Source of the DNA: an uncultured delta proteobacterium
GTDB taxonomy: Bacteria; Desulfobacterota; Binatia; UBA9968
Assembly (NCBI GenBank): GCA_963745835.1
Contig: CAVUZH010000020.1
Span: 137,040 to 201,039, forward strand
Length of the DNA: 64,000 nt
Direction of reading: 5' to 3'
The stretch's first letter is position 1. Each line of letters begins with the position of its first letter. Both the position numbers and the translations under genes were made by a program. The notes under the pieces are model-generated. The model saw only the letters and a program-made list of their open reading frames with translations, made no database searches and was not told the origin of the DNA. This document shows positions 23,300 to 58,047 of the stretch, piece by piece.

Positions 23300-24010
23300 T
23301 TAGATCCCTTTCATCAAACCGGCGAGTTCTGTCTTAGCAGCATTGTGATCCCAGATCTTCTGAACCACCGAGTCTTTGCGGCGCTGTTTCATGACCCTTT
23401 GTGTCTCGTCCTCGTTGTAAATTATGACAGGTCCCAGCAATGAAGCTTTATAGAACCGCGACGCCGCTTCTTCCAAGTCCACACATCCGGCGAATACCCA
23501 TTCGATCGAATGAGCGACGACCATCGACCCATGACCGCGCAGCATCACGGCATCCGCGGCGCCAAGCGCTTTTGCCACTGCGTCGCCCTGCTCTATCGTA
23601 TGAATCAGTGCTGGGTCCATGTAAACAGGTAATGGTCCCGGGCCAAAAAAAGCGCCAGGATTGGAAGAAGCTGGATAGAACGGTTTGTCAACCATGCTCA
23701 GGATGGCAACCATATGATTGTGCAGATGAGCGACACTTTGGATATCGCTACGGGCTCTATAGGCCCGCGCGTGCATATTAACCTCTGACGGCGCTTTGTA
23801 TTTGCCTTCGATCAATTTCCCATCGAAATCGGTGATCACCATATCGTCCGGTTTTACCGTAGCGCGACTTACCGGGTGTGGCAGGATAACAAGGTGATCA
23901 GACCCGGGAATACGCGCGCTAATATGACCGCTGTAATCGACTAATCCGGCGTTGAACAACATGCGGGACGACATAGCGAGCTTTTTTTTGATCTCTGATA
24001 ATTCCGACAC
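23300..24010 (-). CDS. Class II aldolase/adducin family protein
   Basis: SGHISAR, PSEVNMH, VAHLH, LRGHG. Confidence 0.88.
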   Translation of the reverse strand: MSELSEIKKKLAMSSRMLFNAGLVDYSGHISARIPGSDHLVILPHPVSRATVKPDDMVITDFDGKLIEGKYKAPSEVNMHARAYRARSDIQSVAHLHNHMVAILSMVDKPFYPASSNPGAFFGPGPLPVYMDPALIHTIEQGDAVAKALGAADAVMLRGHGSMVVAHSIEWVFAGCVDLEEAASRFYKASLLGPVIIYNEDETQRVMKQRRKDSVVQKIWDHNAAKTELAGLMKGI

Positions 24011-42840: not shown

Positions 42841-45521
42841 TTAAGCGTGAGCTTCCGCCCAATTCGGGCCCACATGGATATCGACGTCAAGGCCGCAGCG
42901 AAGATCCGCAGCTTGAGTCATCGCTTCCTCGATCAAAGCCCGAGCCTGCTCAAGGTGCTCGACAGGAATCTCGAAGACGAGTTCGTCGTGCACAGTCAAC
43001 AGCATCTTTGCAAGCGGTTCTCTACGCAACGCTTCACCCACATTGATCATAGCCTTCTTTATGATATCTGCGGCGCTTCCCTGTATCGGGGTATTGAGCG
43101 CCATACGCTCGCCGAGCGCTCTTAGCCGGAAATTTGACGAGCCCAATTCCGGCAAATAGCGACGGCGGCCAAACATCGTGGTCGTAAACCCGTCGATCTT
43201 GGCTTGGTTCACCTGCGCGGCTAGAAACTCTTTCACTTTCGGAAATTGCGCATAATAGGCTTCTACAAAACTCGCTGCCACGTCCATTTCTACGCCGAGC
43301 CGTTGCGATACTCCGAAAGTGGACATGCCATAGGCGATGCCATAAGAAAACTGTTTTACCTGGTTGCGCATCTGCGAGGTCACTTCAGCCAAAGCGATAC
43401 CGTAGACTTTCGCCGCGATGGTGGCGTGAAAATCATGCCCCTGCGCAAAGGCTTGCAAAAAAGTTTCGTCTTGCGACAGATGCGCGAGAACACGCAGCTC
43501 AATCTGAGAGTAATCCGCTGATAACAGCACATGCCCCGGCGGCGCAATAAAGGCGCGGCGAATCTGACGTCCCAGCTCACCACGTATCGGTATGTTTTGC
43601 AGGTTGGGTGCGGTTGACGACAAGCGTCCAGTGGCAGCCGTCGTCTGCTCGTAAGTGGTATGGATTCGATTGCTTTTGCTATCAATCAGCTCCAACAGCA
43701 TCTCCGTAAAGCCGGTCTTTAGTTTCGATACCTCTCGATATTCGAGCAGGACTGGAATGATTCGATGCACCTCGGCCAGCTTCTCCAATTCGGCAGCGTC
43801 GGTGGAAAAACCCGTCTTGATTTTCCTGGTCTTGGGTAGACCGAGCTTTTCGAAGAGAATCCGCTGGAGCTGTGGCTGCGAGTTCACCTTGAAGTCTTCG
43901 CCGGCGAGATCTTTGATTGCCCGTTCAAGCGCGGTTATTTTGTTTCCTAAATCGGCATCGAACTTTTCAAGATAATCGCGGTCGATGAGGATGCCATTAT
44001 GTTCCATTCTGGCTAGTACGCCAATTAGTGGGAATTCCAAGGTGGTGGCAAGTTCCCAGATGCCTTGCTCGCTGAGCTGCTCTTGCAGTATGGGAACCAT
44101 GCCGCGGATAGCCATAGCTTCACGAGCGATGCGCTCTTTTTCTGGGGCGCCGAAGGCAAGAGTACTTTGTTCGCCGATCGCCAGTTCGGGTGCGTTGCCG
44201 TTGAGCAAAACCCCCAGATAACGTTTCGCCGCGTCAGCCAGCGTGTATCCAGAGGCTGATCCCGGCTCCAGTAAATAGGCGGCAATCTTGGTGTCACAGT
44301 AGAATGATCGAAATTCGATACCGACCGTCAAAGCTAAACGATAGATGGATTTGGCGTCATGAGCCACTTTCAACCGCACAGGATCTTGAAAAAATTCCCC
44401 GAGCCGGTCCATTGCTGCGCCCATGCCCAGCGTGTGCACCTCGCCAGGCCCATCACAAACAGCCAGCCAATTCTCGCTCCAAGCCAATGCGACGGCGCCA
44501 TCTTGTTTGATTTCGTCAGCCGATCTCAATTCCGAGATTGATTTTGGTTCGAGAGCCGCGCCGAGAGGCACCGAAACGTGCATATTCAGCGCTCTCAAAC
44601 GTTCGTGTAAACTACGGAACTCAAGTGAGGTAAAGAGCTTTAGAACTTCTTCATCATCCCAGCGCTCGAGGCACAGTTTGGTTGAATCGAGTTCGAGTAC
44701 AACATCATTGAGTAACCGTCCCAGCTCTTTATTGATCCGTACCTGCTCGGCGTGCGCTTTGATCGAATCGCGAAGTTTGGGTGTGAGCTCATCCGCATGC
44801 GCGATGATGCCTTCAATATCGCTATACTTCTTGACCAGCTGAGCCGCGGTTTTGTCGCCAACCCCGGGAATACCAGGAAGATTATCGGAGGGCTCGCCCT
44901 TGAGCGCCACGAAATCGAGCCACTGATCCGGGAAACGCCGTAGCGCTCGATAACCGTAGGCGCGTCATATCGGATGACATCGGAGATTCCGCGGCGAGTC
45001 ATGATCACCGATACCCCTTCGCCTACAAGCTGGAGAATGTCTCGGTCACCGGTGACGACGATTACTTCGCAGCCTTCACCACGGCAATTCTTGGTCAGCG
45101 TCGCTAACAAGTCATCGGCTTCATAGCCCTCGAGCTCGACAATCGGAATTCGCAGAGCTCGAAGCACCTCTCGAATCAATGGCAGCTGCTGCCTGAAAAG
45201 ATCCGGAGTCTCCGCGCGACCCGCTTTATAGGCAGCATAACGATCGAGGCGAAACTGCGGCGCGCCTTTATCGAAGCAAACTATGACAGCTTGCGGCCGC
45301 TCGTCGGCCAAAAGCTTTATGAGCATGGAGGTGAAGCCGAAAACGGCATTGGTCACCTGTCCGGAAGATGTGATCAGCGTGTCGGGCAATGCAAAAAAAG
45401 CGCGGAACGCGAGAGAGTGACCATCGATCAAGATGATCTTGCGCAGGTTATTTCTAGACCGGGCACTATCGGTTGATCCAGCCGATTTTTTGCTTGATTG
45501 ATTTTTGTTTTTAGCGCTCAC
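42841..45521 (-). CDS. polA: DNA polymerase I, frameshifted near 44930
   Basis: The 5'-3' exonuclease part (IDGHSLAFRAFFA, YEADD, VTGDRD) is in one frame. ALKGEPSDNLPGIPGVG and the polymerase motifs TGRLSS..PNLQNIP, ADYSQIELR, PIQGSAADIIK, VHDEL are in another. Confidence 0.95.
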
Positions 45522-45649: not shown

Positions 45650-47215
45650 TTATTTACGCCAAACTAAAACGCTCGGACTCGCTCCTCCGTCCGACAGCAA
45701 TGTCTCGCTGTGGCGAATGACTTTTCCCGAAGAGGTACGCGGTAGCGACTCACGGATGACAATCTTTTGCGGCACTTTGAAATTTGCCAGATTAGCGCGC
45801 AGAAAACTTATCAACTCCTTTGTTGCGATCGCATGGTCTGGCCGGGGCACTACCGCAGCACCGATCACCTCACCCCGCTTCGGATCAGGGATGGCAAAGA
45901 CAATGGTCTCTTGCACGTTCGGAAAGCTGTAGATCAGGTTTTCCACCTCGGCGGGGTACACGTTAAGACCGCTGGTGATGATCATATCGTCAAGTCGACC
46001 GAGATGGATGAAGTAACCGTCCGAGTCCCGTTTGCCGACATCGCCGGTGTAAAACCAGCCGTTACGAATGCGCGCTGATGTGGCCTCTGCTTTGCGAAAA
46101 TACCCTTTCATCACATGGGGACCACTCGTAATGATTTCTCCCGGTTCATCGACGGGCAGTTCCCTACCGGACTCATCGACGATTCTTACTTCGACTCCCG
46201 GTACTGCGCGGCCAATACTTCCCAACTTGGCTTCGGCGTGCTCCGGTTCAACCAGGGTGATCATCGGCGAAGTCTCGGTCAAGCCATAACCCTGGATAAG
46301 TGCGATGTGCGGCTGAGCTGAATGAAATGCGCGCAGGAGCGGCAACGGAACCGTAGTCCCCATCATGGCGGCGATCTTCACGCTGCTGGTGTCATATTTC
46401 GAAAGATCGCGCACCCCTAGGAGAAGTTGAAAAACAATCGGCACGCTTTCAAAGACACTAATGCGATATTTCTGAATGCCGTCCAACAAGGTAACGGGGT
46501 TAATTTGGTCGAAAATGACTAGAGTGAATCCTTTTTCGGCCACTTCATTGCAGACCAACGGGCCAACGATGTGCGACATCGGCAGGATGCAGCCCCGGAT
46601 CGTGCTCGAATCGGTGATGCCCATAGCGGTCATGACACGCGGGTACTGCGCCAGATTGCGGTAACTGAGGACCACGCCTTTGGGTTCGCCTGTGGTCCCT
46701 GAAGTATAAAGAATCAGTGCCTCGTCGTCAGCCTGCCGTCGCGGCGCGAGCGCTGATCGAGGCGGTGCCGCGTAGCGACTTTCAAAGGACTGTTCGCCCT
46801 CGCCTTGGACAATCCATATTGATACTGGGGTGAGCTCTTCGAGGACATTGGCCACTTCGGAGATCAGCTGCTTATGGACAACCAGGAGCTTGAGATCCGC
46901 ATCGCACAAGACGTCCTGTAACTCCTTGCCCCTCAATCGGGCATCAAGGAGCACGCTCACTGCGCCGAGTTTTTGACTAGCAAAATAAATCAGCGGAATT
47001 GCCGCGCAATTTGGTAACAGCACTCCCACTCGATCGCTTTGTTTGATCCCTTCGCTGTGCAAGTGACCGGCTAGAGCATGCACCCGCGCGTTAAGAACCG
47101 AAAAGCTCAGTTCTTCTTGCTTGTCAATGATCGCGGTTTTGTTTGGATGCTTTCGTGCTGCTTGGTCGAGCAACTCCGCGGCGAAAAATCCTACTGAATC
47201 GATATGGTTTGCCAC
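45650..47215 (-). CDS. AMP-forming long-chain acyl-CoA synthetase family protein
   Basis: YTSGTTGEPKG, QGYGLTE, GWFYTGD, GR.DDMII.SG.NVYPAEVE, LPRTSSGK. Confidence 0.93.
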   Translation of the reverse strand: MANHIDSVGFFAAELLDQAARKHPNKTAIIDKQEELSFSVLNARVHALAGHLHSEGIKQSDRVGVLLPNCAAIPLIYFASQKLGAVSVLLDARLRGKELQDVLCDADLKLLVVHKQLISEVANVLEELTPVSIWIVQGEGEQSFESRYAAPPRSALAPRRQADDEALILYTSGTTGEPKGVVLSYRNLAQYPRVMTAMGITDSSTIRGCILPMSHIVGPLVCNEVAEKGFTLVIFDQINPVTLLDGIQKYRISVFESVPIVFQLLLGVRDLSKYDTSSVKIAAMMGTTVPLPLLRAFHSAQPHIALIQGYGLTETSPMITLVEPEHAEAKLGSIGRAVPGVEVRIVDESGRELPVDEPGEIITSGPHVMKGYFRKAEATSARIRNGWFYTGDVGKRDSDGYFIHLGRLDDMIITSGLNVYPAEVENLIYSFPNVQETIVFAIPDPKRGEVIGAAVVPRPDHAIATKELISFLRANLANFKVPQKIVIRESLPRTSSGKVIRHSETLLSDGGASPSVLVWRK

Positions 47216-48195
47216 AGCAAAAAGGCCCTCTCGAATGGTTTGTACCAGCGCGCGAGCTGCGCCAGCTCGCCGCGCTTAAGTTTTAAGTTGCCCTGCTGAG
47301 TTGCAAGAAAAGGATCGACGCGGGCTCGAAACACTGCGCTCCACCACTCTTCTGAGCCGCTGATCATAAACTCACCGCTATCACCCCGTTCAAGCTGCGT
47401 GATCTGGCCAGAGTCAAAACGCACGGTCCAGGCTGCGTCCTTTTCTTCAAGAAAAAGCGTCAGGGATGTAGAGAGGCCGGTCTCTTCCCCGTGAGAACGA
47501 AATTGAGAATCATGGTTCGCGCGCTCCACCAAAGCGGACATGTGCTCTTTCGAGAACAACACATAAGATTCACGCGTCTGTGGATCGGCGAGGCCCTTTT
47601 GTTGTGTTATCCGATCCGCAATCGAAGCGTTCGATTCACTTCGAAGCTCCATGAAAAACCGGCAACGCACAGCTTCTTCCAGTAAATCGGTAAGCAAAAA
47701 GGTCTCTTGAAGATTCCTGCCGATAGCCACCGTGCCATGACCCTTGATGATGGCGACCGGACGGTACTTTAATTCTTCTGCTAACCTCTCGGGCTTTGTT
47801 ACCGTCGGCGTATCCTGAGCGACTATCGGAACTTCGCCAATTGTATACTTCTCCTCAAAACTCACCGGAACGAAATGATCATGGGTCAATGAAAATGCCA
47901 GAGTCATGGGTGGATGAACATGAACGATGGCTTGTGTCCCGCTGGCTGCATACAGAGCCAAATGCAGAGGCGTCTCGCTCGATGCAAGCTGGTCTCGGTT
48001 AAGCGGCCTGCCGGCGCCATCAATCCGCACCAAATCTGCCGCTGTTAAAAAACCAAGGGGTGCATGCCGCCCCGTGATCAAAAACTCGTTCTCTCTAACC
48101 CGACAACTGAGATTTCCGCCCCAGCCGCTGATTAGATGACGGTCAAACAGCAGCTTGCCCCATTTGATCATCTCTCCTTGGAGCTTCTTCATCAT
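47191..48195 (-). CDS. Class II aldolase fused to a C-terminal SCP2-like lipid-binding domain
   Basis: GGNLS, SSETPLH, HVHP, GHG; C-terminal LFSKEHM..L...AN....WTVRF..G.I...FMISGS...W....DPFLATQQGNLKLKRG. Confidence 0.8.
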   Translation of the reverse strand: MMKKLQGEMIKWGKLLFDRHLISGWGGNLSCRVRENEFLITGRHAPLGFLTAADLVRIDGAGRPLNRDQLASSETPLHLALYAASGTQAIVHVHPPMTLAFSLTHDHFVPVSFEEKYTIGEVPIVAQDTPTVTKPERLAEELKYRPVAIIKGHGTVAIGRNLQETFLLTDLLEEAVRCRFFMELRSESNASIADRITQQKGLADPQTRESYVLFSKEHMSALVERANHDSQFRSHGEETGLSTSLTLFLEEKDAAWTVRFDSGQITQLERGDSGEFMISGSEEWWSAVFRARVDPFLATQQGNLKLKRGELAQLARWYKPFERAFLLWQTISIQ

Positions 48196-48212
48196 TCTAG
48201 TCTCAAAATTCG

Positions 48213-49719
48213 TTAAACAACTCCCAGCGGTATGACTTCGCTTTCGAGGGGAAAGATTGAGGCTCCGCTGGGACAAATATTTTTTCCCATGAACGTCGAG
48301 ACATCGTTATCAATACTCAATCTCTCAACTGAATCAGACGCGCAGCAGTTCAACGGGTACGCCATGGGCGCGCGCCAATTCAAGTGCCAACAATGAGCCA
48401 CAGATAACACTGGCTCCCTGCGGGTCGAGCCGGCTATAGTAGAGGTAGAGCTTACTGATTTCGGCCCGGGCGAAAAAAAATCCTATCATGTTGTCAGAGA
48501 TCAGAGTCGTCGGCAGATCGTGCTCAAGCAGCGCCGGCGCCACGGCATGAACGCCCCACATATGCGGCCGCATTTCCGGAATCAAGAAACGGCTGGCTCG
48601 CTCAGCTTTCAGCGCACCGACTAAGTGATCGCACTGATCTGAAGGCGGGATACCATAAAGGAGCAGGTACTTGCTTCCATCCTTTATCGGGCCAGGTTCT
48701 GGGGCTCTCTGCTGCTGGTACTTTCGGCGGAAACTTTCAGGTGTGTAGACACCGTCAAAACCAATAAGATGCGTAATTAACGGCCCGGGCGTAACATCAA
48801 AAGCAGGATAGCGGACCGCAACTCTAGCGTCGGCTATCAGCTGCCGTCCTTGGAAGCTTAGCAGCTCTGCGCCCGGCCTTTCTTCGATCGGCACATCGCT
48901 CCCTTGCACCAACGAACGCGGGTCTTGAACCAGCACGTGAAAAGGAACTCCGTATCGCTTTGCCATTACCGCCAGCGGATAGGTGCCGACTTTGTTGATG
49001 ATATCGCCATTCTGTGCCGCACGATCCGAACCGACGACGACTGCATTGACTTCGCGTCGAGCCATCACCTGGGCAATGGCGCAATCGGGAATCAGTGATA
49101 CGCGAACGCCTCCTCGTGCGAGCTCCCACGCGGTTAGTCTCGCGCCTTGCAGGTACGGTCGGGTCTCCGTGGCGATGACGGCGAAGTCTTTGCTCATCGT
49201 CGCGCAATGCTGCGCTATCGCCAACAGTTCTCCACTCATGTTGCAGTGGGTCAAAAGCCGCGCCGGGTCCGGCAAAAGCTCGGCAGCGCGCTTTGCTCTT
49301 GCACCCCGGGCACGGACTATCTGCGCGGCGAAATCACAAGCCCGCTCGCTAATCCACTCACCGGCACTCACGTTTCCCGGCAGCTTTTCAAACCACTCGT
49401 CGAAATATTGACTCAGTCCGCGGAAATCGAATGTCGGTCGCGCTCGGCAGAACTCGTGGGTCAGTTGATCGATCGATTTTCGCAGCGGGGGGATTTCCTT
49501 CGCGTGATAGTTTTGCGCCAGGAGCGCACCGCTATAGAGGAACGTAAGGACTTGACCAAAGGCACGCGTTTTCATCTCACGCACAGCATCGATGGCCTGC
49601 GAAGCATCTTTGACGCTGATATATTGGATCTGCTCGGGAAGCGAAATCTCATTGAGAATTCGAAAACCGCCACCTTCCCATAGAACCGGCTCAAAAAGCG
49701 GACTTTGTACCGAATTCAT
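48213..49719 (-). CDS. mtnA: MtnA/eIF-2B-family ribose-1-phosphate isomerase with a duplicated C-terminal domain (C-terminus probably frameshifted near 48345)
   Basis: ARPT, LTHCN, ATETRPYLQGARLTAWEL, VGSDR..NGD..NKVGTY, IEERP, PAFDVTP; second copy IPEMRP...TTLISDN. Confidence 0.85.
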
Positions 49720-49742
49720 AAACGATCTGCAGTTGCACCAGG

Positions 49743-50477
49743 CTAAAAGTACTTGAGAGCTTGGCGGGCAACCGCAATGATTTTCTCTTCGGCTGCGAAA
49801 AACAAAGGGTCACGAAACCCGAATTTGGCGTGCAAACACTCATCCGACACGGCAAGAATGGCACCGGCCTTTTTCTTTCGAACTTGAGCGATCGTCAAAA
49901 AAGCCGAGGTCACCATGTCGATGCTCGAAACATTTTGTTCTGTGAGTTGCGCGATCAATTCCGGCGTTTCCTGGAATAGCGCGTCAGTGGTAAAAATCCA
50001 GCCCAGATGGAAGCGCACCTGCAGGCTTTCCGCGGCTCGCTTCAATGCATCGACTATCTCGGGGTGAGCCACGGTGGAAAAATTATTCGCCACGTAATAG
50101 GGCGATGTGCCTTCACCGCGCAGGGCTCCGGTTACGATGATCAGATCGCCAATCTTCACATGCTCCTGCAACGAGCCGCAACTTCCGACGCGGATCAGCG
50201 CTCGGGCGCCGGCGCCGCAAAGAATTTCGGTGGTAATCGCCGTGTCCGGAGCGTAGCGCCCGCCATTGCCGACGGTTACTCTCTTTCCGTCCAGAGTTCC
50301 GGTGTGCATCTCGTAATCCAGGAACGTGAAGTTTTTTTGCGGTTGATCCAACATACTCAAAAGCAATTGGCTGCGATCCTTCGGGCCGGGAATCAAGGCA
50401 TAAGGACCGAGAGAATCGGCCTTCAGCCCGAGCATCGAGAGCATTCTTTGCGGTGTAAAGTGAGCTTCTTTGAGCAT
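49743..50477 (-). CDS. Nucleoside phosphorylase (NP-I, DeoD/Udp-like), divergent
   Basis: LIPG, LIRVGSCGSL, GDLII..GALRGEGTS.YY, TTDALF, DM, VSD. Confidence 0.88.
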   Translation of the reverse strand: MLKEAHFTPQRMLSMLGLKADSLGPYALIPGPKDRSQLLLSMLDQPQKNFTFLDYEMHTGTLDGKRVTVGNGGRYAPDTAITTEILCGAGARALIRVGSCGSLQEHVKIGDLIIVTGALRGEGTSPYYVANNFSTVAHPEIVDALKRAAESLQVRFHLGWIFTTDALFQETPELIAQLTEQNVSSIDMVTSAFLTIAQVRKKKAGAILAVSDECLHAKFGFRDPLFFAAEEKIIAVARQALKYF

Positions 50478-50480
50478 TGA

Positions 50481-51704
50481 TCAAACAGCTTGGCCGACAA
50501 ACTCAATCAGATCTTGGGTCGGCAGAGCAGGCTGTTCAAGCGCATTGAATGAGCGCTGGCATAACGCGCTTGAAGTCAAAATCAATTCGGCGCCGGTCTC
50601 CTTCGCCTCACGCATACGATCGGTTGCGCTCCATTGAGCGAGGCTCGGATCGGCTTCAGGAACACCGCCACCGCCGCCGCAGCACCATGCCCAACGTTGG
50701 TTCCGTGTCATTTCCACGACCTCGACTCCAGGAATGGCGCGCAAAATGGTGCGCGGCGCTTCGTATATGCCGCAACCTCGCCCCAAATGGCAGGAATCGT
50801 GGTAAGTAACTTTTTTTCGAATCGGTCTGGTCATTTTCAACTGACCCGCCCGTAAGGCGGCTTCGAGATATTCCACGCCATGCAAGACTTCCAAATCGGC
50901 GGCACCAACTTTGGCATTCTCTCGCCAAATGCGCCGGCAACTGCCGCAAGCAACCACCAGCCTTCGCACTCCACCTTGCGTAATTACGGCCAGGTTTTCC
51001 TGTTGCAGACGCTCGTACTCGCGCCGAAATCCGAGATCGTACGCATGCAACCCGCAGCATTTTTCCTGATCACCGAGGATAACAAAGTCCTCGCCTGCCT
51101 TTTGCATCAGCTTGGCTAAGGCCACGACACCGGCGCGGCCGCTTGACTGATCGGCGGAGCAACCGGCGAACAACAGCGTCGGGGCATGTCGCTCAGCAAT
51201 TTTAGCCAGCCCCAATCCGTCGGCCCAAAAGCCGCGTTCTGCCCTCGTTTGTGACCAGGGGTTATCGTGTTGCTGCAAGCCCTGGTATAGCTGGCGATGA
51301 GCGGCAATCGGACCCTCTTCCTCAGTGATCTGCTCGCGCATGGCAACCGTAATATCCCATGGGCCGTAACCGTCAGCCCGGACGCCGCAAAGCTCCTGGC
51401 ACATCAGGCAGGTTGTACAACTATAGACGATTTCCTTGAGTTCGGGCGTGATCGGGTCAAGCCCGTGAAAGACACGCTGCGCCATCAGCCAACGCGACTT
51501 TGGCGTGTGGCGTTGGAACCGATAAAATTCATACGGAGGGCACTTCTCTTTAGGCCCGGGAACGTCTTCCATCGGATTGGCCGGGCCGTGCCCATAACAG
51601 GAGCCGCATAAAACACAGCCACTGCTGCGCGCATTTAGATCTTTGGCATAAAGCCATTTTTTGACCCGCTCTAGGCCGAGGTTCTTTTTGGATTCGTCTT
51701 GCAC
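50481..51704 (-). CDS. Fe-S oxidoreductase with CCG domains (HdrD/GlpC-like)
   Basis: CVLCGSC..CP, CTTCLMCQELC, KCCG, YHDSCHLGR, WCCGGGGG. Confidence 0.9.
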   Translation of the reverse strand: MQDESKKNLGLERVKKWLYAKDLNARSSGCVLCGSCYGHGPANPMEDVPGPKEKCPPYEFYRFQRHTPKSRWLMAQRVFHGLDPITPELKEIVYSCTTCLMCQELCGVRADGYGPWDITVAMREQITEEEGPIAAHRQLYQGLQQHDNPWSQTRAERGFWADGLGLAKIAERHAPTLLFAGCSADQSSGRAGVVALAKLMQKAGEDFVILGDQEKCCGLHAYDLGFRREYERLQQENLAVITQGGVRRLVVACGSCRRIWRENAKVGAADLEVLHGVEYLEAALRAGQLKMTRPIRKKVTYHDSCHLGRGCGIYEAPRTILRAIPGVEVVEMTRNQRWAWCCGGGGGVPEADPSLAQWSATDRMREAKETGAELILTSSALCQRSFNALEQPALPTQDLIEFVGQAV

Positions 51705-51796
51705 AGTATGAAGCGTGTAAGATCCGCAGCTGTTTGAAGAAATGAAATCTTAAGACATTAATTGTATAGCCCCAGACAAACTGGCGTGTCAACAAA

Positions 51797-52258
51797 CTAG
51801 CTTAGATGGACGAGCTCGGCGTGATTCAGCAGCTTTCGTAGCAAGGCGGAGAGTTCTTTCTGATGCGAAAGATCGAGCGAAGAAAAAATTGCAGATACAC
51901 TTCTCTCAAAGAGAGGAATTGTGGTCTTGTATAAGTTGGCTCCTTTATCTGTCAATGTTACGTGAACAACACGGCGGTCGGTTGAGTCGCGCTTTCTTAC
52001 GACCAGTTTTTTTTGCTCAAGCCGGTCAACGATACCGGTTAGATTGCTGACCGTCACCATCATCTTAGCGCCGATCTCGCCAAATGGGAGGCTGCCTGCG
52101 TAACCGATGGTTGCGAGTACGTAGAACTGTGGCGGTGTTAAACCGACTTTGCCAAGATCAGATTCCAACTTTTTATGCGATGAGAGATTAAACCTTAAAA
52201 ACCGCACCCAGAGACTCGTGCTGTAGGAAGCAAAAAAGAGACGTTTTTCGACTCGCAC
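51797..52258 (-). CDS. MarR-family transcriptional regulator
   Basis: LTPPQFYVL, SNLTGIVDRLE.K.LV.R.RDSTDRRVVHVTLTDKG. Confidence 0.93.
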   Translation of the reverse strand: MRVEKRLFFASYSTSLWVRFLRFNLSSHKKLESDLGKVGLTPPQFYVLATIGYAGSLPFGEIGAKMMVTVSNLTGIVDRLEQKKLVVRKRDSTDRRVVHVTLTDKGANLYKTTIPLFERSVSAIFSSLDLSHQKELSALLRKLLNHAELVHLS

Positions 52259-52397: not shown

Positions 52398-53132
52398 ATG
52401 AGACTCCATATACTGGGCTGCGGTGATGCATTCGGCAGTGGTGGGCGTAATCAAAGTGCATACTTAATCGAGGCTCCGGACCGCCTGTTCTTGCTGGACT
52501 GCGGCGCGACTTCTTTGCTCGCGCTGAAGAAGCTCGGATTTAATTCGGGCCAACTCGATGTCATCTTCGTGAGCCACCTACATGGCGATCACTTTGGCGG
52601 CTTGCCTTTTTTATTTAGCGAATTTTTGTATGAGAAGAGCCGCGAAAAACCGCTGCATGTGGCTGGACCCGTGGGAACAGAAGAAAAAGCTCGTGCCGTC
52701 TTCGACCTCATGTACGGAAAGGGCACCAAGGCCGTGGATCTTGCCAGTACCCGCTTCCATGTTTTAGAGCCTGAGAAAACTTCAACGATTCAGGGAATTG
52801 AGGTATTTCCATTCCGCGTGCCGCATCAGGTGAACGAAATATCGCTTGCGTTGAAGGTTAGTTATAACGGCAAGCACGTTTTGTTTTCGGGAGATTCGGC
52901 CTGGACAGATGCTTTTCTAAAGCATGCCCGGGGGGTCGACCTTTTCGTCTGCGAGTGTACCTACTACGACCGGGAGACTTCGAACCACATGAGCTACCTA
53001 CAGTTGAGAGAACAACTGCCACGTTTGAGCTGCTCTCGAATCATACTGACTCACATGGGCTACGACATGCTCGCTCGTAGCGCCGAAATTTCCTGCGCGA
53101 TGGCAGAAGATGGAATGGTCGTGGAGATTTGA
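52398..53132 (+). CDS. Metallo-beta-lactamase-fold hydrolase (RNase Z-like)
   Basis: LGCGDAFGSG, LLDCG, SHLHGDHFGG, FSGD, HM, LTH. Confidence 0.9.
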   Translation: MRLHILGCGDAFGSGGRNQSAYLIEAPDRLFLLDCGATSLLALKKLGFNSGQLDVIFVSHLHGDHFGGLPFLFSEFLYEKSREKPLHVAGPVGTEEKARAVFDLMYGKGTKAVDLASTRFHVLEPEKTSTIQGIEVFPFRVPHQVNEISLALKVSYNGKHVLFSGDSAWTDAFLKHARGVDLFVCECTYYDRETSNHMSYLQLREQLPRLSCSRIILTHMGYDMLARSAEISCAMAEDGMVVEI

Positions 53133-53134
53133 AA

Positions 53135-54376
53135 CTACAAGGGCGGCTCTATCTGGCTTCCAACACTCTCGTTTTCGGGAATGATGGAATACGGCAGGAC
53201 AATGGCCCGATGGCCGCTTTCTTTTAACACGTCCTGGAGTATATCCTGCGCCTCCGAAAGCTCGGCATAAGGACCCAAGCGGACACGATAAGAAGTCTCG
53301 CCTTTGTCGCTTAGCGTTGTTTTTTCGACAAAAGCATCAAAGCCTTTTTCCGAGAATGCCTTCACCAGAGCTTCTGCTCTGTGCTGCTCGCGAAATGAAC
53401 CAACTTGCAGAATGTAACCGTCGCTCGAAGATTTGAGCGCGGCGTCTTCCTGCGGCATTACTGCTAATGCGGATAATTTTGCCGAGTCCGGATTGGCTCG
53501 CTGTGCACTCAGGGACTTCGCAGCTGGTGTCAACGTATTAAGGACGTGGTAATTATCGAATCCGTATTCTAGAAGGCGTTTCGTATCACCCCAAAGATCG
53601 CGCGAGCCGAGTAGCGACACTATCAGGGTTACGCCATTTCGCTCGACCGCACCGACATAGCATTTTTGAGCGGCAAAGGTATAGCCTGTTTTGCCGCCGA
53701 TTGCGCCATCGTAGTTCCACAAGAGCCGGTTGTGATTACGCACTGAGATCAGCCGCGTCCGCGTGCTTTTCTTTCCGGGCGACAGCGATCTCACCGAACT
53801 CATTTTCGTACGCATAATTTCTCGGAACGTTGGATTTTTCATCGCATATCTGAAAATTAACGCCAAATCACGAGCCGTCGAGTAATGATCCACCGCCGTC
53901 AATCCATGCGGATTACTAAAATGTGTATTGATTGCCCCAAGATCATGTGCCTTTTTCGTCATGATCTCGGCGAATCTTTCCACGGAACCCCCGATGCCCT
54001 CGGCCAATACGACACTGGCATCGTTAGCGGAGCCTAGCAGCACCCCATAAAGCAGATCTTCAATACTGACCGTTTGTCCCGGCTTGAGGTAAAGCTTGGA
54101 GGCAGGCACCCGGGTTGCAGCTTTGGAAACGGTTAGTCGTTCGTTGGATCCTTTCTGACTCTCAAGGGTCAGAATTGCAGTAAGTACTTTAGTCGTGCTG
54201 GCTGGTGGAAGCGGGGTGTCAGCATTTTTTTGATAAAGGATCTTGCCGGTTTTCGCATCCATCAGAAGTAGTGCGCGGGCGGATAAGTCGTCGTCTGGAG
54301 AAACTGCCCAGAGCAAAGAATTAGGCAGAAGCGCGGAGATAAACAGGAATCCCGCTATAATCAATCGTAAGTTCAA
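53135..54376 (-). CDS. D-Ala-D-Ala carboxypeptidase (S11) with SPOR domain
   Basis: ASTTK (SxxK), SAN, NPHGL, KTG; C-terminal LQVGSF...YRVRLGPY. Confidence 0.92.
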   Translation of the reverse strand: MNLRLIIAGFLFISALLPNSLLWAVSPDDDLSARALLLMDAKTGKILYQKNADTPLPPASTTKVLTAILTLESQKGSNERLTVSKAATRVPASKLYLKPGQTVSIEDLLYGVLLGSANDASVVLAEGIGGSVERFAEIMTKKAHDLGAINTHFSNPHGLTAVDHYSTARDLALIFRYAMKNPTFREIMRTKMSSVRSLSPGKKSTRTRLISVRNHNRLLWNYDGAIGGKTGYTFAAQKCYVGAVERNGVTLIVSLLGSRDLWGDTKRLLEYGFDNYHVLNTLTPAAKSLSAQRANPDSAKLSALAVMPQEDAALKSSSDGYILQVGSFREQHRAEALVKAFSEKGFDAFVEKTTLSDKGETSYRVRLGPYAELSEAQDILQDVLKESGHRAIVLPYSIIPENESVGSQIEPPL

Positions 54377-54635
54377 TGTTTTCAGCTTCTTGGCCTCTCT
54401 TTCGGGGCTTCTTCACTGAATGCGCTGGTCGCTCGGAAGCATCAAAATAGAACCAGTTTATATCATATCTCCCGATCTCAGGATAGCTTTTTGTCCTCGA
54501 ACCGTGTTCGCATCACGACTAGCTGCAATCGATTTGTCAGTCCGAGCCCAGGATCACACTTGGAGGCCAATAAGCAATCTCCTTTGCGCCGGAATCTCGT
54601 CGAAGATACTGATACTGCGTGGATCTAACTGAGAT

Positions 54636-55178
54636 CTACTTCAAAATCTTAATCTGGGAGGGATTTTCCAAGACCATTTCCAACCCATATTGCGGATGAT
54701 CCTTTATCTCTCCACGTAGCTCCACGTCCCTGCCATCAAACGCTTTTGGCGGCAGCTTCTGTTGCTCGAAAAGATCCACGGCCGACGCAAAGATGACCGC
54801 CGTCAGCGCGGACCGGGAAGGTCCGAAATTGAGAAAGTAAGTGTTGCTTTTGGCCGAATGGCCGACACGAAAAATTCGGCCGCGAATCCGCGCAGGCTTT
54901 CCGGCCAAAGCACGAATCTTTTCGACCTCGAGCGCCTGCAAAACAGCGGGTTCGACCGCTTGTTCATCAACCGGCAAATGCGTGAACTTGACGGCAAAGC
55001 TTGGAAGAGCCGGGGACGGGTGAAGCCGCACCACATCCAACGTCGTGGATTCGTCGACTTGCGCGATCGGAGGATTCCAACGTTGATAAAGAACTAGGGT
55101 GAAGACTCCCGCAAAAAACGCGACTATAAGTGAGATCGCGTGTGTCGGCGCGAAGTCTTTCAAGATTTTCTCTCCCAC
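54636..55178 (-). CDS. Membrane-anchored OB-fold protein
   Basis: N-terminal TM; GK..RIRGRI..V......YFLNFG.....TAVIF......GR.VELRGEI......EMVL.NPSQI. Confidence 0.65.
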   Translation of the reverse strand: MGEKILKDFAPTHAISLIVAFFAGVFTLVLYQRWNPPIAQVDESTTLDVVRLHPSPALPSFAVKFTHLPVDEQAVEPAVLQALEVEKIRALAGKPARIRGRIFRVGHSAKSNTYFLNFGPSRSALTAVIFASAVDLFEQQKLPPKAFDGRDVELRGEIKDHPQYGLEMVLENPSQIKILK

Positions 55179-55696
55179 AAACGCTCAAAAATTCGTCGGT
55201 ATTCCTCTGCTAGCGGCCCGGCATCACGAAAAAGTAAAAGATTTTCATCATTGGAGCTGTCGGCGGCTTGGGTCCAATTATAGGAGCCGGTAAACACGAC
55301 GCGCCGGTCGATGACGGCGAATTTCTGGTGCATGAGCCCAGCCTCTCGTGCCGCATTGGGCGGCTTGCTGCCTGAAAGACGCCGTACCGGAATTCTTTGC
55401 ACCTCTAAAAATTTACCTTTAGACTTGTCATTGCGCGAGTCAAACTCCCGATCAATGATGACCTGAACCATAAGACCCCGCTTCTTGGCTTGCACCAAAG
55501 CGCCGGCTAGTTCGTCGCTTGTGAACGCGTAGACGGCAACCAGAAGTTCTCTTCTAGCATTCTCAATTTCTCGTACAATATGGGTAGAGCACTTACCTTG
55601 GGGACTAAAACAAGCTTCCACAGCCATATCGGCCCTGGCGAAGGCAATGAGCGTAAAGAAAATTGCGCCTGCAATCAGGAATGGCAATGGCTTCAT
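55160..55696 (-). CDS. Exported single-HKD phospholipase D-family nuclease (Nuc-like)
   Basis: Signal peptide, FSP, VAVYAFTS, MHQKFAVID, TGSYNWT, NDEN. Confidence 0.88.
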   Translation of the reverse strand: MKPLPFLIAGAIFFTLIAFARADMAVEACFSPQGKCSTHIVREIENARRELLVAVYAFTSDELAGALVQAKKRGLMVQVIIDREFDSRNDKSKGKFLEVQRIPVRRLSGSKPPNAAREAGLMHQKFAVIDRRVVFTGSYNWTQAADSSNDENLLLFRDAGPLAEEYRRIFERLWERKS

Positions 55697-57060
55697 ATTG
55701 CCGCGATCCGGTCGCCGTAGCTTGGGACCGTCCGCCCTCCCAAGCACATCTGCAAAATAAGCCGCTCCATGACTAATTGCGGGTTCGCCCCGCTTGACTT
55801 TAAGAGCAGATCCGCATCGTGAATACCGCGCATGTGTGAAAGCAACTCGGGTAACGAGAATGTTTCAGCTCGCTGAAAACAAAGATAATCCGCGTACGGG
55901 TTGCGCGTCAGTAATGTCGTCCTATGGTCGATGATCGCTTGCTCAAATTGCTTGTAGGTCATACCGCGCTTCCACCGGCCGCGCAAATCACTTTCGAGTA
56001 TTTGCCGCGCAGATATAAGCTTCCGCACTTCAGCCGCGATGACGCTCAGTAATCTCAGTGGGTGATCACCTCCCGCGATCAGACGAACTAGCTGGCAGAG
56101 AGCCGCTGTAGCGTCACGCGCGGCAATAAACCGGGTGAGATCGAAAATCCAACCTTCGATTTGGTCCGTGAAAATCGTCTCAACATCATCAGCGCGGATC
56201 ACCGCGTGTTCACCGACGTAGAGCACCAACTTATTCAGCTCTTGTTGAAGCGTGCGTAGATCATCCCCGGCGCGGAACAAGATCAATTCGCGGGCTTTCG
56301 GGTCAACCCCCTTATTAGAGAGACTCAACTGCCGGTCAATAAATTCCCGCAGCTTGTCTCGGCTGATCTTGCCAAACCGATCACGCTCGAGACCAAGAAA
56401 AAATATCGCGCCGTTTTCTTCGAATTGCTTGTAGAGTCGAGTTCGCCGGTCCACTTGCGCTGCACTGAGGAGCAGAAAATCCCAGGACGGCAAACCTCCG
56501 TTCAATAGTTTCCGAATTGCGTTTTCTTCGGATTCACGGCCTTCTTTAAGCTCAAGTCCTCTGCTCTTACAGTATGCGACCAGCGCGTCGGCCGCTTCCC
56601 TACCGTCATGATCTTGTGCCTGTAACAACTCAAATACTGCTGCATCCCGGGACGGTTCGAGCTGTTCCCATTGTTTTTGGCTCCAACCCTCGACCGCTAG
56701 TAAATTGAATAAAAGCTTACCTGCATCATCTTTTTTGTCCTCACTCCATAGCTGCAATATTTTCTGCCCGAGTTCGCTTTTATTCTCACGCGAAAGAAAG
56801 TAGGGCGCATTTTCGACCCAGACAAGCTTTTTTCCGGGCAAGAACGGGGGAGTCAAAAGCGACAATTCAATCTGATCCCATGTCGCTGAGCGGCCGTCGA
56901 ACCGCTCAAGATTAAATTCTCTCTGGTCAGGGGGTACGACCATATCGATCAGCGCCTTGCAGCCCGATTGTACCTGCAGATCATCGCCGAATAGAAGCAC
57001 CAAGGCCGGTCCACTACCATTTCCAACATCATTTAGAAAATTTTCAAAATTTCGTTTCAT
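55693..57060 (-). CDS. holA: DNA polymerase III subunit delta
   Basis: LLFGDD, FN..RFDG, PPFLPGKKLVWV, QELNKL.LY, IFDL, D..LKSSG.NP.L.MERLI. Confidence 0.85.
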   Translation of the reverse strand: MKRNFENFLNDVGNGSGPALVLLFGDDLQVQSGCKALIDMVVPPDQREFNLERFDGRSATWDQIELSLLTPPFLPGKKLVWVENAPYFLSRENKSELGQKILQLWSEDKKDDAGKLLFNLLAVEGWSQKQWEQLEPSRDAAVFELLQAQDHDGREAADALVAYCKSRGLELKEGRESEENAIRKLLNGGLPSWDFLLLSAAQVDRRTRLYKQFEENGAIFFLGLERDRFGKISRDKLREFIDRQLSLSNKGVDPKARELILFRAGDDLRTLQQELNKLVLYVGEHAVIRADDVETIFTDQIEGWIFDLTRFIAARDATAALCQLVRLIAGGDHPLRLLSVIAAEVRKLISARQILESDLRGRWKRGMTYKQFEQAIIDHRTTLLTRNPYADYLCFQRAETFSLPELLSHMRGIHDADLLLKSSGANPQLVMERLILQMCLGGRTVPSYGDRIAAI

Positions 57061-57162
57061 GCTGTAGCTAGGGTTTGCTGAAAAGGGTTGAGCTCTTTTG
57101 CTTGGCGCTACTCGAGATGATAATTATGACCTCACCAAACCACGTACCTCCCAGCATTCCGG

Positions 57163-57390
57163 TCAATGTTTGGGAACCCACATCTGGTTTTTCTCACTCC
57201 AGGCATAATCTGACTTCCAAACTTTGAGTCCCATGGTGTATTTACCGCCAGATTTTGAAACGAAAATCCTCTCGTTCGAATGAGGAATCTCAACCCGGGC
57301 GATAATGAGAACCTTCTTTGAGATTCCCTTGTTGATCAAAATGCGGTCACCGACGCGCATCGTTGGCCGATTATCTTTGCGAGCTTTCAT
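57163..57390 (-). CDS. Small basic hypothetical protein
   Basis: 75-aa Lys-rich, beta-rich ORF (MRVGDRILI...) upstream of holA. Confidence 0.45.
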   Translation of the reverse strand: MKARKDNRPTMRVGDRILINKGISKKVLIIARVEIPHSNERIFVSKSGGKYTMGLKVWKSDYAWSEKNQMWVPKH

Positions 57391-57568
57391 GAGCGAAAAA
57401 TATCATTGCCGGAGTGCTCAGGCAAATTTCTCTGGCCTGAATGCACCTATGATGATCTAGAGCAGAGAGCCGGTCAAACTATGCAGCTGATGTTCAGGAG
57501 CGCCTACGTATGACGTTAAAATCTGTAAGGCTCTCAAAGCTAGAGTCTTATTAGGAGCGACCCTTGCC

Positions 57569-57597
57569 TTGACAATCTCCAGCCCCTCTCCTATAGC
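57569..57597 (+). promoter_or_regulatory. Putative sigma70 promoter
   Basis: TTGACA-N17-TATAGC. Confidence 0.55.
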
Positions 57598-57756
57598 TGG
57601 TTCGATTTAGTTTCGCCATGGAATTTAGGACGAGCCATAGCAATTCTCAATATTCCAATAGGTCACGGCGGAAATCTGTAGCGCACAGTCCCATGCTGGC
57701 GCAGAGCGGAGGTTCTGCCTGTACTTGGGTGTCTCGACTTGGCTGTCACGTACAGT

Positions 57757-57786
57757 CTAGGTGAATAAAAACTAGGTGAATAAAAA
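57757..57786. repeat. Perfect 15-bp tandem repeat (CTAGGTGAATAAAAA x2)
   Basis: Read directly from the sequence. Confidence 0.9.
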
Positions 57787-58047
57787 TTGCCAGAGTTCTT
57801 GGGCGAATGCGTCAAATTGTTTGGATTTACCATCACCTAAAGTGGCATGCCCTAGCATATTCAATCAGCAACTTTGGCTCTGAGCATAACCTGATGAAGA
57901 GCGAGTTCTCATGCGCTATGCGCCGCGCCTGTAGAATCCGTGCAGAAACGAAGATCGAATTCGCCGAGAATGGAACCGGCGGAATCCTTGCAAGCTTCTC
58001 AGCCTAACAACTAAAGACGTTCCACATCGATTTCTTCGGAGGCAATT

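Follow-up and report, generated by a model that had tools for sequence, protein, structure and literature searches.

Known routes for trimming 5'-substituted nucleosides

The DHAP shunt of Rhodospirillum rubrum, Rhodopseudomonas palustris and extraintestinal E. coli relies on MtnP (or MtnN together with MtnK), MtnA and Ald2; the base is removed, an MtnA-family isomerase follows and a class II aldolase releases DHAP and an aldehyde from the 5' end, as set out in the pathway description of PMC10986504. A related arrangement, the 5-deoxyribose salvage by DrdK/DrdI/DrdA of Bacillus thuringiensis (PMC6079011; PDB 6btd/6btg), has an isomerase and a class II aldolase of its own, paralogues that exist alongside the MtnA of methionine salvage; it starts from a free sugar and a kinase and includes no SCP2 domain, ligase or Fe-S protein. 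The fluorometabolite route of Streptomyces cattleya uses fluorinase, PNP, isomerase, aldolase and aldehyde dehydrogenase to trim a SAM-derived 5'-substituted 5'-deoxyadenosine to a 2-substituted acetaldehyde and then to the acid, the same five-step logic as that of the cassettes bearing an aldehyde dehydrogenase (ALDH) described below. Its 5' substituent, however, is a fluorine installed by a SAM_HAT-family enzyme, and neither SCP2 nor a CoA ligase belongs to the route as outlined in PMC7688953; a SAM_HAT-family gene was absent from all 160 loci that we examined. In the HpnH/HpnG pair (adenosylation by the adenosylhopane synthase, then base removal) and the MqnE route, a radical SAM enzyme joins 5'-deoxyadenosyl to a lipid or aromatic carbon and a PNP-family enzyme acts next, but in the account given in PMC13459092 the ribose carbons are kept, without an isomerase or aldolase step.

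Organization and conservation of the operon

The window, the whole 64,000-nt stretch of DNA analysed, belongs to a soil bacterium of Candidatus Binatia. At 45650-52258 it carries six ORFs, all on the minus strand, where the earlier note had placed six co-oriented genes. The MarR gene is separated by 92 nt from the CCG gene, which lies 3 nt from the phosphorylase gene; 23 nt separate the latter from the isomerase gene, and the ligase and aldolase genes overlap by 25 nt. By family assignments, no known chemistry comes closer than that of the DHAP shunt, as the earlier note had proposed. The locus differs from it in a phosphorylase that is not MtnP, an isomerase with an extra IF-2B-like domain, an aldolase-SCP2 fusion and the presence in the same operon of an acyl-CoA ligase, a CCG Fe-S protein and MarR. 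All six genes are partly covered by RNA-library contigs from three soil metatranscriptome runs, although such contigs prove neither transcription nor a single transcript.

Conservation was assessed in 66 Binatia-type loci with a fused aldolase, each gene being counted only where the contig extended far enough to hold it. All six genes were found in 47 of the 66, and on this count the isomerase (60/60), phosphorylase (57/57) and ligase (57/57) were always present, with MarR in 49 of 50 loci and the CCG Fe-S gene in 52 of 54. The fused aldolase gene itself occurs in 23 of the 25 genomes of the family. The clustering of the six genes is far beyond chance, and the operon is confirmed as real and conserved. 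Throughout the family, however, the cluster also keeps its synteny with DacA, an MBL-fold hydrolase and PolA, so that conservation inside the family says little, by itself, about a functional link. This shared synteny would fit six mere neighbours held together by the chromosome region without a common pathway, a reading that we consider highly improbable given the gaps of 3-23 nt, the 25-nt overlap and the joint movement of the four core genes into unrelated contexts in distant lineages.

Phosphorylase, isomerase and accessory genes

The product of the third gene (49743..50477, minus strand; 244 aa) had been called a nucleoside phosphorylase. It is a member of the PNP_UDP_1 family (PF01048, 118.6 bits) but not MtnP, forming instead a distinct, divergent subfamily of the hexameric purine nucleoside phosphorylase type. 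It stays under every NCBIfam cut-off (best TIGR01718, 136 vs 280), its top scores coming from uridine and purine nucleoside phosphorylase models. In alignments to solved PNP and UP chains, the ribose motif reads D-M-V instead of E-M-E, while the Asp of the S-D motif is retained, and none of these positions varies among 12 Binatia and 32 distant sequences. By alignment, two residues are missing from this 'DMV' protein, the ribose motif's second Glu and the Arg that contacts phosphate across subunits; it may be no phosphorylase, or may bind another sugar. An N-terminal His (H6), which might be the counterpart of the His that binds the 5'-OH in E. coli PNP, is also invariant.

The isomerase (PF01008, 187.7 bits) exceeds the cut-off of TIGR00524 (192.2 vs 185.85 bits) and stays below that of TIGR00512 (215 vs 279); its fold matches MtnA (2yvk/1t9k) and the catalytic positions C159 and D239 are conserved. 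The MtnA-type assignment of the earlier note thus stands, with the additions of a C-terminal domain and a frameshift in the assembly. The extension of ~150 aa gives a second IF-2B profile match, is Rossmann-like in the predicted model (pTM 0.88) and has IF-2B proteins as Atlas neighbours. The annotated ORF (48334-49719, 461 aa) is shortened by one extra base near 48341, which is missing from one RNA-library contig; the intact frame would run to ~48213 (48213..49719, minus strand), and relatives measure 501-512 aa. Elsewhere in the genome, a canonical MtnP (308 bits, above cut-off) and MtnA (294 bits) lie in separate housekeeping contexts, which marks the operon copies as specialised paralogues serving a second route.

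The first gene (51797..52258, minus strand) encodes a MarR-family regulator of 153 aa (PF01047, 59.5 bits) that reached no NCBIfam equivalog in the profile search and probably senses a pathway intermediate. It is followed by a soluble Fe-S protein of 407 aa (50481..51704, minus strand) with a 4Fe-4S dicluster (PF13183, Fer4_8, 28.7 bits) and two CCG domains (PF02754, 104 bits in two stretches), similar to HdrD, GlcF, GlpC and TfrB; its best NCBIfam model is TfrB, at 138 bits against a cut-off of 385. Among 80 distant metagenome loci, MarR was found in none and the CCG gene in one, as a weak match; the sole distant locus with MarR is the cassette of genome G075, headed by a regulator 40% identical to that of the window. 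The CCG gene is thus lineage-specific and MarR nearly so, and neither is part of the core. Conservation of the neighbourhood, which the earlier note had wished to see tested, was borne out within Binatia, where the six genes form one block, and elsewhere for the core three and the ligase, but not for these two genes. The proposal that the Fe-S protein oxidises the aldehyde gained no support from this distribution, which includes its absence from two of 54 Binatia loci; we regard it as a putative redox accessory limited to the lineage.

A GlcF/GlpC-like CCG protein, the uridine/purine phosphorylase scores and the invariant H6 would also suit catabolism of ordinary nucleosides, in which ribose-1-phosphate would pass through ribulose-1-phosphate to DHAP and glycolaldehyde, with the CCG protein serving glycolate oxidation. 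We consider this improbable, since the operon has no GlcD/GlcE partner, the CCG gene is no part of the cassette in other lineages, the ribose-binding Glu is replaced, and SCP2 and an acyl-CoA ligase would have no role for glycolaldehyde.

Aldolase-SCP2 fusion and acyl-CoA ligase

Residues 1 to ~190 of the fusion protein (47626..48195, minus strand) form a class II, metal-dependent aldolase domain (PF00596, 125.3 bits), which superimposes on FucA 2fk5 (Z 26.1, rmsd 2.4 over 184 residues) and matches DrdA 6btd in Foldseek (E 4e-11); none of the residues E74, H92, H94 and H153 varies among 15 sequences. The likeliest translation start, which relatives share, is at 48195 (MMKK...) and not at the TTG at 48276. 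Residues 211-332 (47200..47565, minus strand) score 17.9 bits with the SCP2 model, under its cut-off of 21.3, but PF02036 matches every one of 16 members of the family (best E 3.3e-6). The profile finds 2cx7 in the PDB (E 2.8e-5), and the structure comparison that the earlier note had called for confirms the sterol-carrier-type fold (Z 18.9 with 2cx7, 120 residues superimposing at rmsd 1.6; SCP2 from human, archaea, yeast and mosquito give Z 8.4-10). The SCPx thiolase-SCP2, the alkyl sulfatase YjcS (4pdx), UbiJ (6h6n) and Eis likewise carry this fold on an enzyme whose ligand is hydrophobic (Z 7.0 to 8.3 for UbiJ and YjcS, 5.0 to 6.6 for Eis-type chains), although none of them is a sugar-phosphate aldolase; no description of an aldolase-SCP2 fusion was found in the literature searched. 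The fold is retained across 24 representative clusters at 22-51% pairwise identity. Eleven loci of other Binatia have only the phosphorylase and an aldolase without SCP2, and fused and unfused forms interleave in the aldolase tree, indicating that SCP2 is dispensable in some lineages.

The last gene (45650..47215, minus strand) encodes an AMP-forming acyl-CoA ligase of 521 aa (PF00501, 284.3 bits; PF13193, 65.8 bits) that reaches 423.6 bits with NF004837 (PRK06187; cut-off 476). Its best solved relatives are feruloyl-CoA synthetase/fatty-acyl-CoA synthase 8wev/8weu, followed by FadD13, and the family assignment gives no chain length.

The cassette in distant lineages

The core of phosphorylase, isomerase, aldolase-SCP2 and ligase recurs in other lineages at 30-45% identity, and the best matches of these distant proteins in the window's genome are the operon genes. 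The order phosphorylase, isomerase, small IF-2B protein, aldolase-SCP2 is the same, at 30-47% identity, in 45 distant loci that span 7 kb or more. An ALDH comes next after the aldolase in 41 of them, and a ligase of the NCBIfam subfamily of the window ligase is nearby in 20, which backs the proposed passage from aldehyde to acid to CoA ester. A B12 radical SAM enzyme (32/45), ketosynthase (20/45) and MMPL (11/45) accompany the cassette, and the lipid-export genes (MMPL, LolA-like, DUF1302) or ketosynthases adjoining it support the hydrophobic substrate that had been predicted. Within the phylum, the cassette occurs in six of the seven other genomes with the fused gene, the contig of the seventh being too short for a verdict, and is rare overall (8/151 genomes).

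The cassette could instead be an ordinary DHAP shunt for 5'-deoxyadenosine and/or MTA, the acetaldehyde or methylthioacetaldehyde being oxidised and CoA-activated while SCP2 is structural or binds the CoA ester. Its three core enzymes come from families that also serve in the DHAP shunt and in DrdK/I/A, the radical SAM enzyme of distant cassettes is of a kind that yields 5'-deoxyadenosine, and both the interleaving aldolases and the Binatia with only a phosphorylase and an unfused aldolase would fit. We nevertheless find such small SAM by-products unlikely as substrates: the genome already has canonical MtnP and MtnA, the phosphorylase, its ribose motif changed, forms a subfamily apart, the SCP2 fold is maintained despite low identity, the ligase is PRK06187-type and not an acetyl-CoA synthetase, the neighbours are lipid-export and ketosynthase genes, and so sparse a distribution is unlike that of a housekeeping detoxification route.

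Proposed hopanoid and futalosine-like substrates

Adenosylhopane, the substrate favoured by the earlier note, would be cleaved to DHAP and a C32 hopanoid aldehyde, then converted to the acid and CoA ester. The chemistry is formally possible, an SCP2 fold is present, the phosphorylase shows weak HpnG likeness (28 bits in the window and 50 in a distant member, against a cut-off of 187) and the cassette radical SAM enzymes weakly resemble HpnJ (121-175 bits vs 578). Adenosylhopane is described as common in soils, from which it might conceivably be taken up. Unlike the HpnH/HpnG and MqnE systems, however, the window's genome has no shc (squalene-hopene cyclase; best 19.7 bits vs 431), no hpnH (best 42 bits vs 225) and no MqnE. 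Above cut-off, shc occurs in only 4 of 41 relatives, against the near-universal fused gene of the family, and neither gene reaches its cut-off in the nearly complete genomes with the full cassette (shc 0/5, hpnH 0/5). Distant cassettes adjoin ketosynthases and cyclases, not hopanoid genes. Adenosylhopane therefore appears extremely unlikely as the substrate. A futalosine-like compound is also unlikely, as the search for MqnE returned CofH as best match and MqnA/D matched at just 27.6 bits.

Proposed pathway

Judging from protein families and neighbourhoods, the divergent phosphorylase would strip the purine base from a 5'-substituted nucleoside to give a 5-substituted ribose-1-phosphate, from which the MtnA-type isomerase, bearing the additional IF-2B-like domain, would make the ribulose-1-phosphate. 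The class II aldolase would then yield DHAP and an aldehyde retaining C4', C5' and the 5' substituent, whose hydrophobic part may be held by the tethered SCP2 domain. The Binatia operon contains no aldehyde-oxidising enzyme (ALDH in 0 of 80 loci); oxidation would fall to an enzyme from outside this operon, the adjacent ALDH being the candidate in other lineages, and the ligase would make the acyl-CoA from the acid.

We lean, by a modest degree, towards the view that Candidatus Binatia has in this operon its own version of a 'nucleoside-trimming' cassette akin to the DHAP shunt, of which the cassette represents a previously undescribed variant. In this bacterium, the operon probably cuts a modified adenosine-type nucleoside, likely a greasy one, to yield a sugar phosphate together with an aldehyde that would end up on CoA.

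Organisation of the operon and its surroundings

The ORF listing places six co-oriented genes on the minus strand at 45650-52258, in agreement with the earlier note, although the start of the aldolase gene had to be corrected and the isomerase gene carries a frameshift. Pfam domains identify them as MarR, a protein with a 4Fe-4S dicluster and two CCG domains (the CCG protein), PNP_UDP_1 (phosphorylase), IF-2B (isomerase), Aldolase_II with a sub-threshold SCP2 match, and AMP-binding with AMP-binding_C (acyl-CoA ligase). The intergenic gaps amount to 92, 3 and 23 nt, and 25 nt are shared by the aldolase and ligase genes. Within the operon, sites resembling promoters or terminators show no excess over the shuffled expectation, and a search of two intergenic regions for operators or promoters revealed no inverted repeats. 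The flanks have a housekeeping character, with an MBL-fold hydrolase, a D-Ala-D-Ala carboxypeptidase with a SPOR domain and DNA polymerase I nearby, and Lon, an M48 peptidase, YchF and the Pol III delta subunit farther away.

The true start of the aldolase gene is probably 48195, the start common to its relatives. The isomerase ORF ends at 48334 owing to one extra base; in the 94%-identical relative locus L015 and in eleven other relatives the isomerase runs approximately 40-50 residues longer and contains a conserved motif in this part. A contig from RNA library X17 has one base fewer at 48341 (depth 3.5, one contig); DNA run X1 has no contig across 48192-48432. The extra base reflects either an error in the assembly or a frameshift specific to this strain. 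DNA polymerase I (42841-45521, minus strand) is also divided into two ORFs that overlap, one for the 5'-3' exonuclease part (44640-45521) and one for the remainder (42841-44910), and both tblastn pieces lie in a single frame in L015, 95% identical in this comparison. This split looks like a second frameshift in the assembly, resembling that of the isomerase gene, and suggests indel errors or real decay.

Contigs from three soil metatranscriptome libraries of three studies cover all six genes in part, with 95-99% identity and with depth on the operon in 25/30, 22/30 and 17/30 bins, and some of them span the MarR/CCG and phosphorylase/isomerase junctions; such contigs are no proof of transcription, strand or a single transcript.

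A second phosphorylase-isomerase pair

The operon phosphorylase reaches no NCBIfam cut-off, the best match being uridine phosphorylase TIGR01718 (136 bits, cut-off 280), and the MTAP models do not match it, so it is not the MtnP-type enzyme (or MtnN plus MtnK) of a DHAP shunt. It can be aligned with the Sulfolobus MTAP as well as with uridine and purine nucleoside phosphorylases of the hexameric type. In these alignments the ribose motif reads D-M-V in place of E-M-E, the inter-subunit arginine has no counterpart and the Asp of the S-D motif is retained, which points to a purine as the base. The aligned ribose-motif, Arg and Asp residues presumably play the roles that they have in E. coli PNP and UP. 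The motif positions are invariant in 12 Binatia and 32 distant sequences.

The isomerase passes the subfamily model eIF-2B_rel TIGR00524 (192.2 bits, cut-off 185.85) and stays under the cut-offs of the MtnA equivalogs TIGR00512 and NF004326. Its fold is MtnA-like (2yvk and 1t9k, E 1e-25), and C159 and D239 are invariant, as in the MtnA-family 1-phosphate isomerase of a DHAP shunt; we take both residues to be catalytic, as in B. subtilis MtnA. The C-terminus forms a Rossmann-like IF-2B repeat.

Canonical counterparts of both enzymes are encoded elsewhere in the genome, in unrelated housekeeping neighbourhoods. The sole TIGR01694 match over cut-off, the canonical MtnP (308 bits), is encoded by another gene, on contig C3, and the canonical MtnA has 343 aa and 294 bits. 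The operon phosphorylase and isomerase are therefore paralogues, and the operon appears to be a second, specialised route beside the canonical MtnP and MtnA.

The aldolase-SCP2 fusion, the ligase and the CCG protein

The aldolase domain (PF00596, 125 bits) superimposes on FucA 2fk5 with a Z of 26.1 and matches DrdA 6btd in Foldseek with an E of 4e-11. Its metal ligands E74, H92, H94 and H153 are invariant, as in the class II aldolases (Ald2/DrdA-like) of the DHAP shunt. The mtnB model (55.6 bits, cut-off 137) and NF006413 (135.5, cut-off 203) both fall short, and the enzyme may be an aldolase or an MtnB-type dehydratase. NF006413 has 15 matches in the whole genome, and a stand-alone gene of the class II aldolase family (236 aa) lies in the window itself at 23300-24010 on the minus strand, beside an amidohydrolase at 24322-25782.

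The earlier note had described an SCP2-like C-terminal domain, and profile and structure comparisons bear this out. The window protein itself scores 17.9-20.3 bits with PF02036, under the cut-off of 21.3, and all 16 relatives of the fusion protein that were compared match this model (best E 3.3e-6). A profile of the fusion family finds the Thermus SCP2 2cx7 in the PDB (E 2.8e-5), onto which the predicted domain superimposes with a Z of 18.9 and an rmsd of 1.6 over 120 residues; the Z values for human, archaeal, yeast and mosquito SCP2 are 8.4-10. These values come from VIA-align, which alone separated the SCP2 part, since whole-model Foldseek was swamped by the aldolase domain. The C-terminal domain is an SCP2 fold, and its lipid binding is putative.

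The ligase is PRK06187-like (424 bits, cut-off 476). Among solved structures, a feruloyl-CoA synthetase/fatty-acyl-CoA synthase pair and FadD13 are its closest relatives, and they do not fix the chain length of the substrate. The CCG protein contains PF02754 in two stretches together with PF13183, the domain content of the HdrD/GlcF/GlpC type. It reaches no equivalog, the best being TfrB (138 bits, cut-off 385), and neither the six operon genes nor the flanks include a flavoprotein or membrane partner for it.

Conservation within Binatia

The closest loci are labelled as Candidatus Binatia or 'Deltaproteobacteria' MAGs. The fused aldolase aligns through SCP2 in 66 of the 80 loci compared; two more (L086 and L099) have all six genes with broken alignments, 11 have only the phosphorylase and an unfused aldolase, and one is a fragment. 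The neighbourhood, whose conservation the earlier note proposed to test, is conserved. Among the fused loci with room on the contig, the isomerase is present in 60/60, the phosphorylase and the ligase each in 57/57, the CCG protein in 52/54 and MarR in 49/50, and all six genes are visible in 47 of the 66. In a set of 41 genomes, which takes in the unpublished G012 and G018 without any conclusion depending on these two alone, the fused gene occurs in 23/25 genomes of the window's family, 1/5 of a second family and 0/11 of a third. Within the first family it was not found in G009 (82% complete), and only the aldolase part was found in G019. Synteny within the family extends to DacA, MBL and PolA, so that within-family conservation alone is weak evidence.

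In the unfused loci, addAB-like genes precede the phosphorylase/aldolase pair, and genes for the isomerase, the CCG protein and the ligase are missing from the vicinity. In the aldolase-domain tree, fused and unfused Binatia sequences form a single clade (support 100/99) whose outside neighbours are fused, and the simplest reading would be a loss of SCP2 from the unfused Binatia aldolases. Elsewhere on the tree fused and unfused sequences interleave, and short representatives may be fragments.

The cassette beyond Binatia

Searching 1.84 billion representatives with a profile brought up 74 matches at E up to 1e-30. Approximately 24 representatives of 320-342 aa, with 22-51% pairwise identity, span both aldolase and SCP2, which corresponds to about 24 separate 50%-identity clusters with the fused architecture. 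Soil and sediment metagenomes commonly contain the cassette; 917 proteins were found at E up to 1e-10, and the best 120 of these are all full-length fusions. With 13 distant fused representatives as seeds, a metagenome scan yielded 80 distant loci. Here tblastn with the window proteins (E up to 1e-6) gave matches to the isomerase in 62 loci, to the phosphorylase in 38 and to the ligase in 26, a weak match to the CCG protein in one locus and none to MarR.

Of the distant loci, 35 are shorter than 7 kb. In the 45 of at least 7 kb, ORFs were clustered and one representative per cluster was annotated. All 45 contain the isomerase and/or a small IF-2B ORF. In most, including L172 and L150, the isomerase is followed by a separate IF-2B-like ORF of approximately 150 aa (PF01008, 40 bits), located before aldolase-SCP2; a minority, e.g., L188 and L200, lack it. 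This ORF is the counterpart of the C-terminal extension of the Binatia isomerase, and the Atlas neighbours of this small IF-2B domain are commonest in Omnitrophota, an independent hint at the lineage of the metagenome loci. We know of no described function for a stand-alone half-IF-2B protein.

An aldehyde dehydrogenase (ALDH) gene immediately follows the aldolase in 41 of the 45 loci, in contrast to the Binatia operon, which has none (0/80 loci) and adds the CCG protein and MarR instead. A B12-binding radical SAM protein (BchE/HpnJ-like, far below cut-offs) and the phosphorylase are each encoded in 32 loci, and a ligase of the same PRK06187 subfamily in 20. Further partners include ketosynthase (20), cyclase (15), polyketide cyclase (14), SDR (13), Amidohydrolase_2 (13), an MMPL transporter with a sterol-sensing domain (11), LolA-like (11) and DUF1302 (10) proteins. 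The conserved unit is the phosphorylase, the isomerase with its IF-2B piece, aldolase-SCP2 and, often, the ligase. Of the ligase and Fe-S genes that the earlier note asked about, the former is often kept with the core and the CCG gene is not kept outside Binatia.

A full-length fused homologue is present in 8 of 151 sampled genomes of the window's GTDB phylum, the window's own genome included, and its surroundings there follow the pattern of the distant loci. Genomes G079, G151, G184 and G117 encode, in varying order, MMPL, radical SAM, phosphorylase, isomerase, small IF-2B, aldolase-SCP2, LolA-like and DUF1302 proteins and one to three ligases, and in G079 and G184 ALDH follows the aldolase. 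In G166, genes for ketosynthase, cyclases, SDR, radical SAM and amidohydrolase precede the trimming genes and ALDH. G075 has a MarR 40% identical to that of the window, then MMPL, LolA-like and DUF1302, and its aldolase-SCP2 stands directly before a ligase 43% identical to the window's. In G047, the contig (4.7 kb) is too short to show more than the fused gene.

Pathway and substrate

The best-supported reading, which retains the general proposal of the earlier note and which we judge slightly on the probable side, is a route resembling the DHAP shunt that takes a hydrophobic 5'-substituted nucleoside through to a CoA ester. In most distant lineages an ALDH stands between the aldolase and ligase steps, which supports the sequence aldehyde, acid and acyl-CoA. 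A hydrophobic substrate and, in distant lineages, a biosynthetic role are supported by the lipid-export and ketosynthase partners and by the SCP2 fold.

Adenosylhopane, the substrate named in the earlier note, fared poorly in the hopanoid gene searches. shc is absent from the own genome and over cut-off in only 4/41 relatives, hpnH is over cut-off in 0/1 (the own genome), and five cassette genomes of 93-100% completeness have neither gene over cut-off (0/5 each); shc and hpnH are hence negative or non-co-occurring across the own genome, 40 relatives and these five. The HpnG model TIGR03468 gives the operon phosphorylase 28.4 bits (cut-off 187.1), so it is not an HpnG equivalog. Nothing besides the SCP2 fold points to an uptake of exogenous adenosylhopane, and we consider this substrate highly improbable. 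The futalosine-like alternative was likewise abandoned, as the sole MqnE-like gene is CofH and the MqnA/D family PF02621 reaches only 27.6 bits. This CofH, a subunit of the F420 (FO) synthase, is encoded on contig C22 at 198673-199749 (locus L133) and scores 468 bits, over its cut-off; the organism probably makes deazaflavin cofactors. A halogenase/hydroxide adenosyltransferase was rejected as nucleoside source, since the own-genome SAM_HAT gene lies beside dnaA/dnaN and none occurs in the 160 loci.

A further reading, which we regard as unlikely, is that the cassette is a biosynthetic device in which SAM donates two carbons from its ribose. By analogy with HpnH and MqnE, a radical SAM enzyme would join 5'-deoxyadenosyl to a hydrophobic precursor, the candidate being the B12-binding radical SAM protein encoded beside the cassette of other lineages. 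Trimming of the adduct by the phosphorylase, isomerase and aldolase-SCP2 would then leave only C5'-C4' as a -CH2-CHO extension, and oxidation and CoA ligation would provide an acyl-CoA for a lipid or polyketide. The Binatia operon would represent the detached trimming-and-activation half. The own genome does encode a homologue of the cassette radical SAM protein, 38% identical, on contig C18 at 168739-170217, with orthologues in 20/24 genomes of the family, 3/5 of the second family and 0/11 of the third. No orthologue turned up in G018 (unpublished), G019 or G023, although two of these carry the operon; as the relatives are not independent, this co-occurrence is a lead only and not evidence of coupling.

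In the C18 cluster (168739-174460; locus L216, 9740-15463), the radical SAM gene is followed by genes for SDR, FAD_binding_4 (with a GlcD-like N-terminus), a TenA/haem-oxygenase-like protein and an O-methyltransferase. Speculatively, the GlcD-like protein could pair with the GlcF-like CCG protein of the operon. On the same contig, at approximately 52980-58960 (locus L225, 12981-18960, minus strand), co-oriented genes encode a DctM-type TRAP transporter, an aldehyde dehydrogenase, an AMP-forming ligase 27% identical to that of the operon, and a 234-aa class II aldolase without SCP2, so the aldolase/ALDH/ligase theme occurs twice in this genome.

Significance

The literature searches brought up no description of the cassette, although the supplementary gene tables of the Binatota genome paper (PMC8262859) might list the genes. 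Chemical precedents are described in PMC10986504 on the DHAP shunt, in PMC7688953, which lists the S. cattleya fluorometabolite enzymes, and in PMC13459092 on HpnH, HpnG and MqnE. Within these searches, the pathway is of a known kind and the variant has not been described. A role in hopanoid degradation, which would have been relevant to biomarker geochemistry, is not supported.

The cassette proteins are small and soluble. If the chemistry proposed here is true, a salvage route for SAM by-products has been rebuilt to deliver a hydrophobic aldehyde or acid to coenzyme A. This would add a new substrate class for the PNP, MtnA and class II aldolase enzymes, give SCP2 a function in bacteria, and account for an unannotated block that recurs among gene clusters from uncultured lineages.
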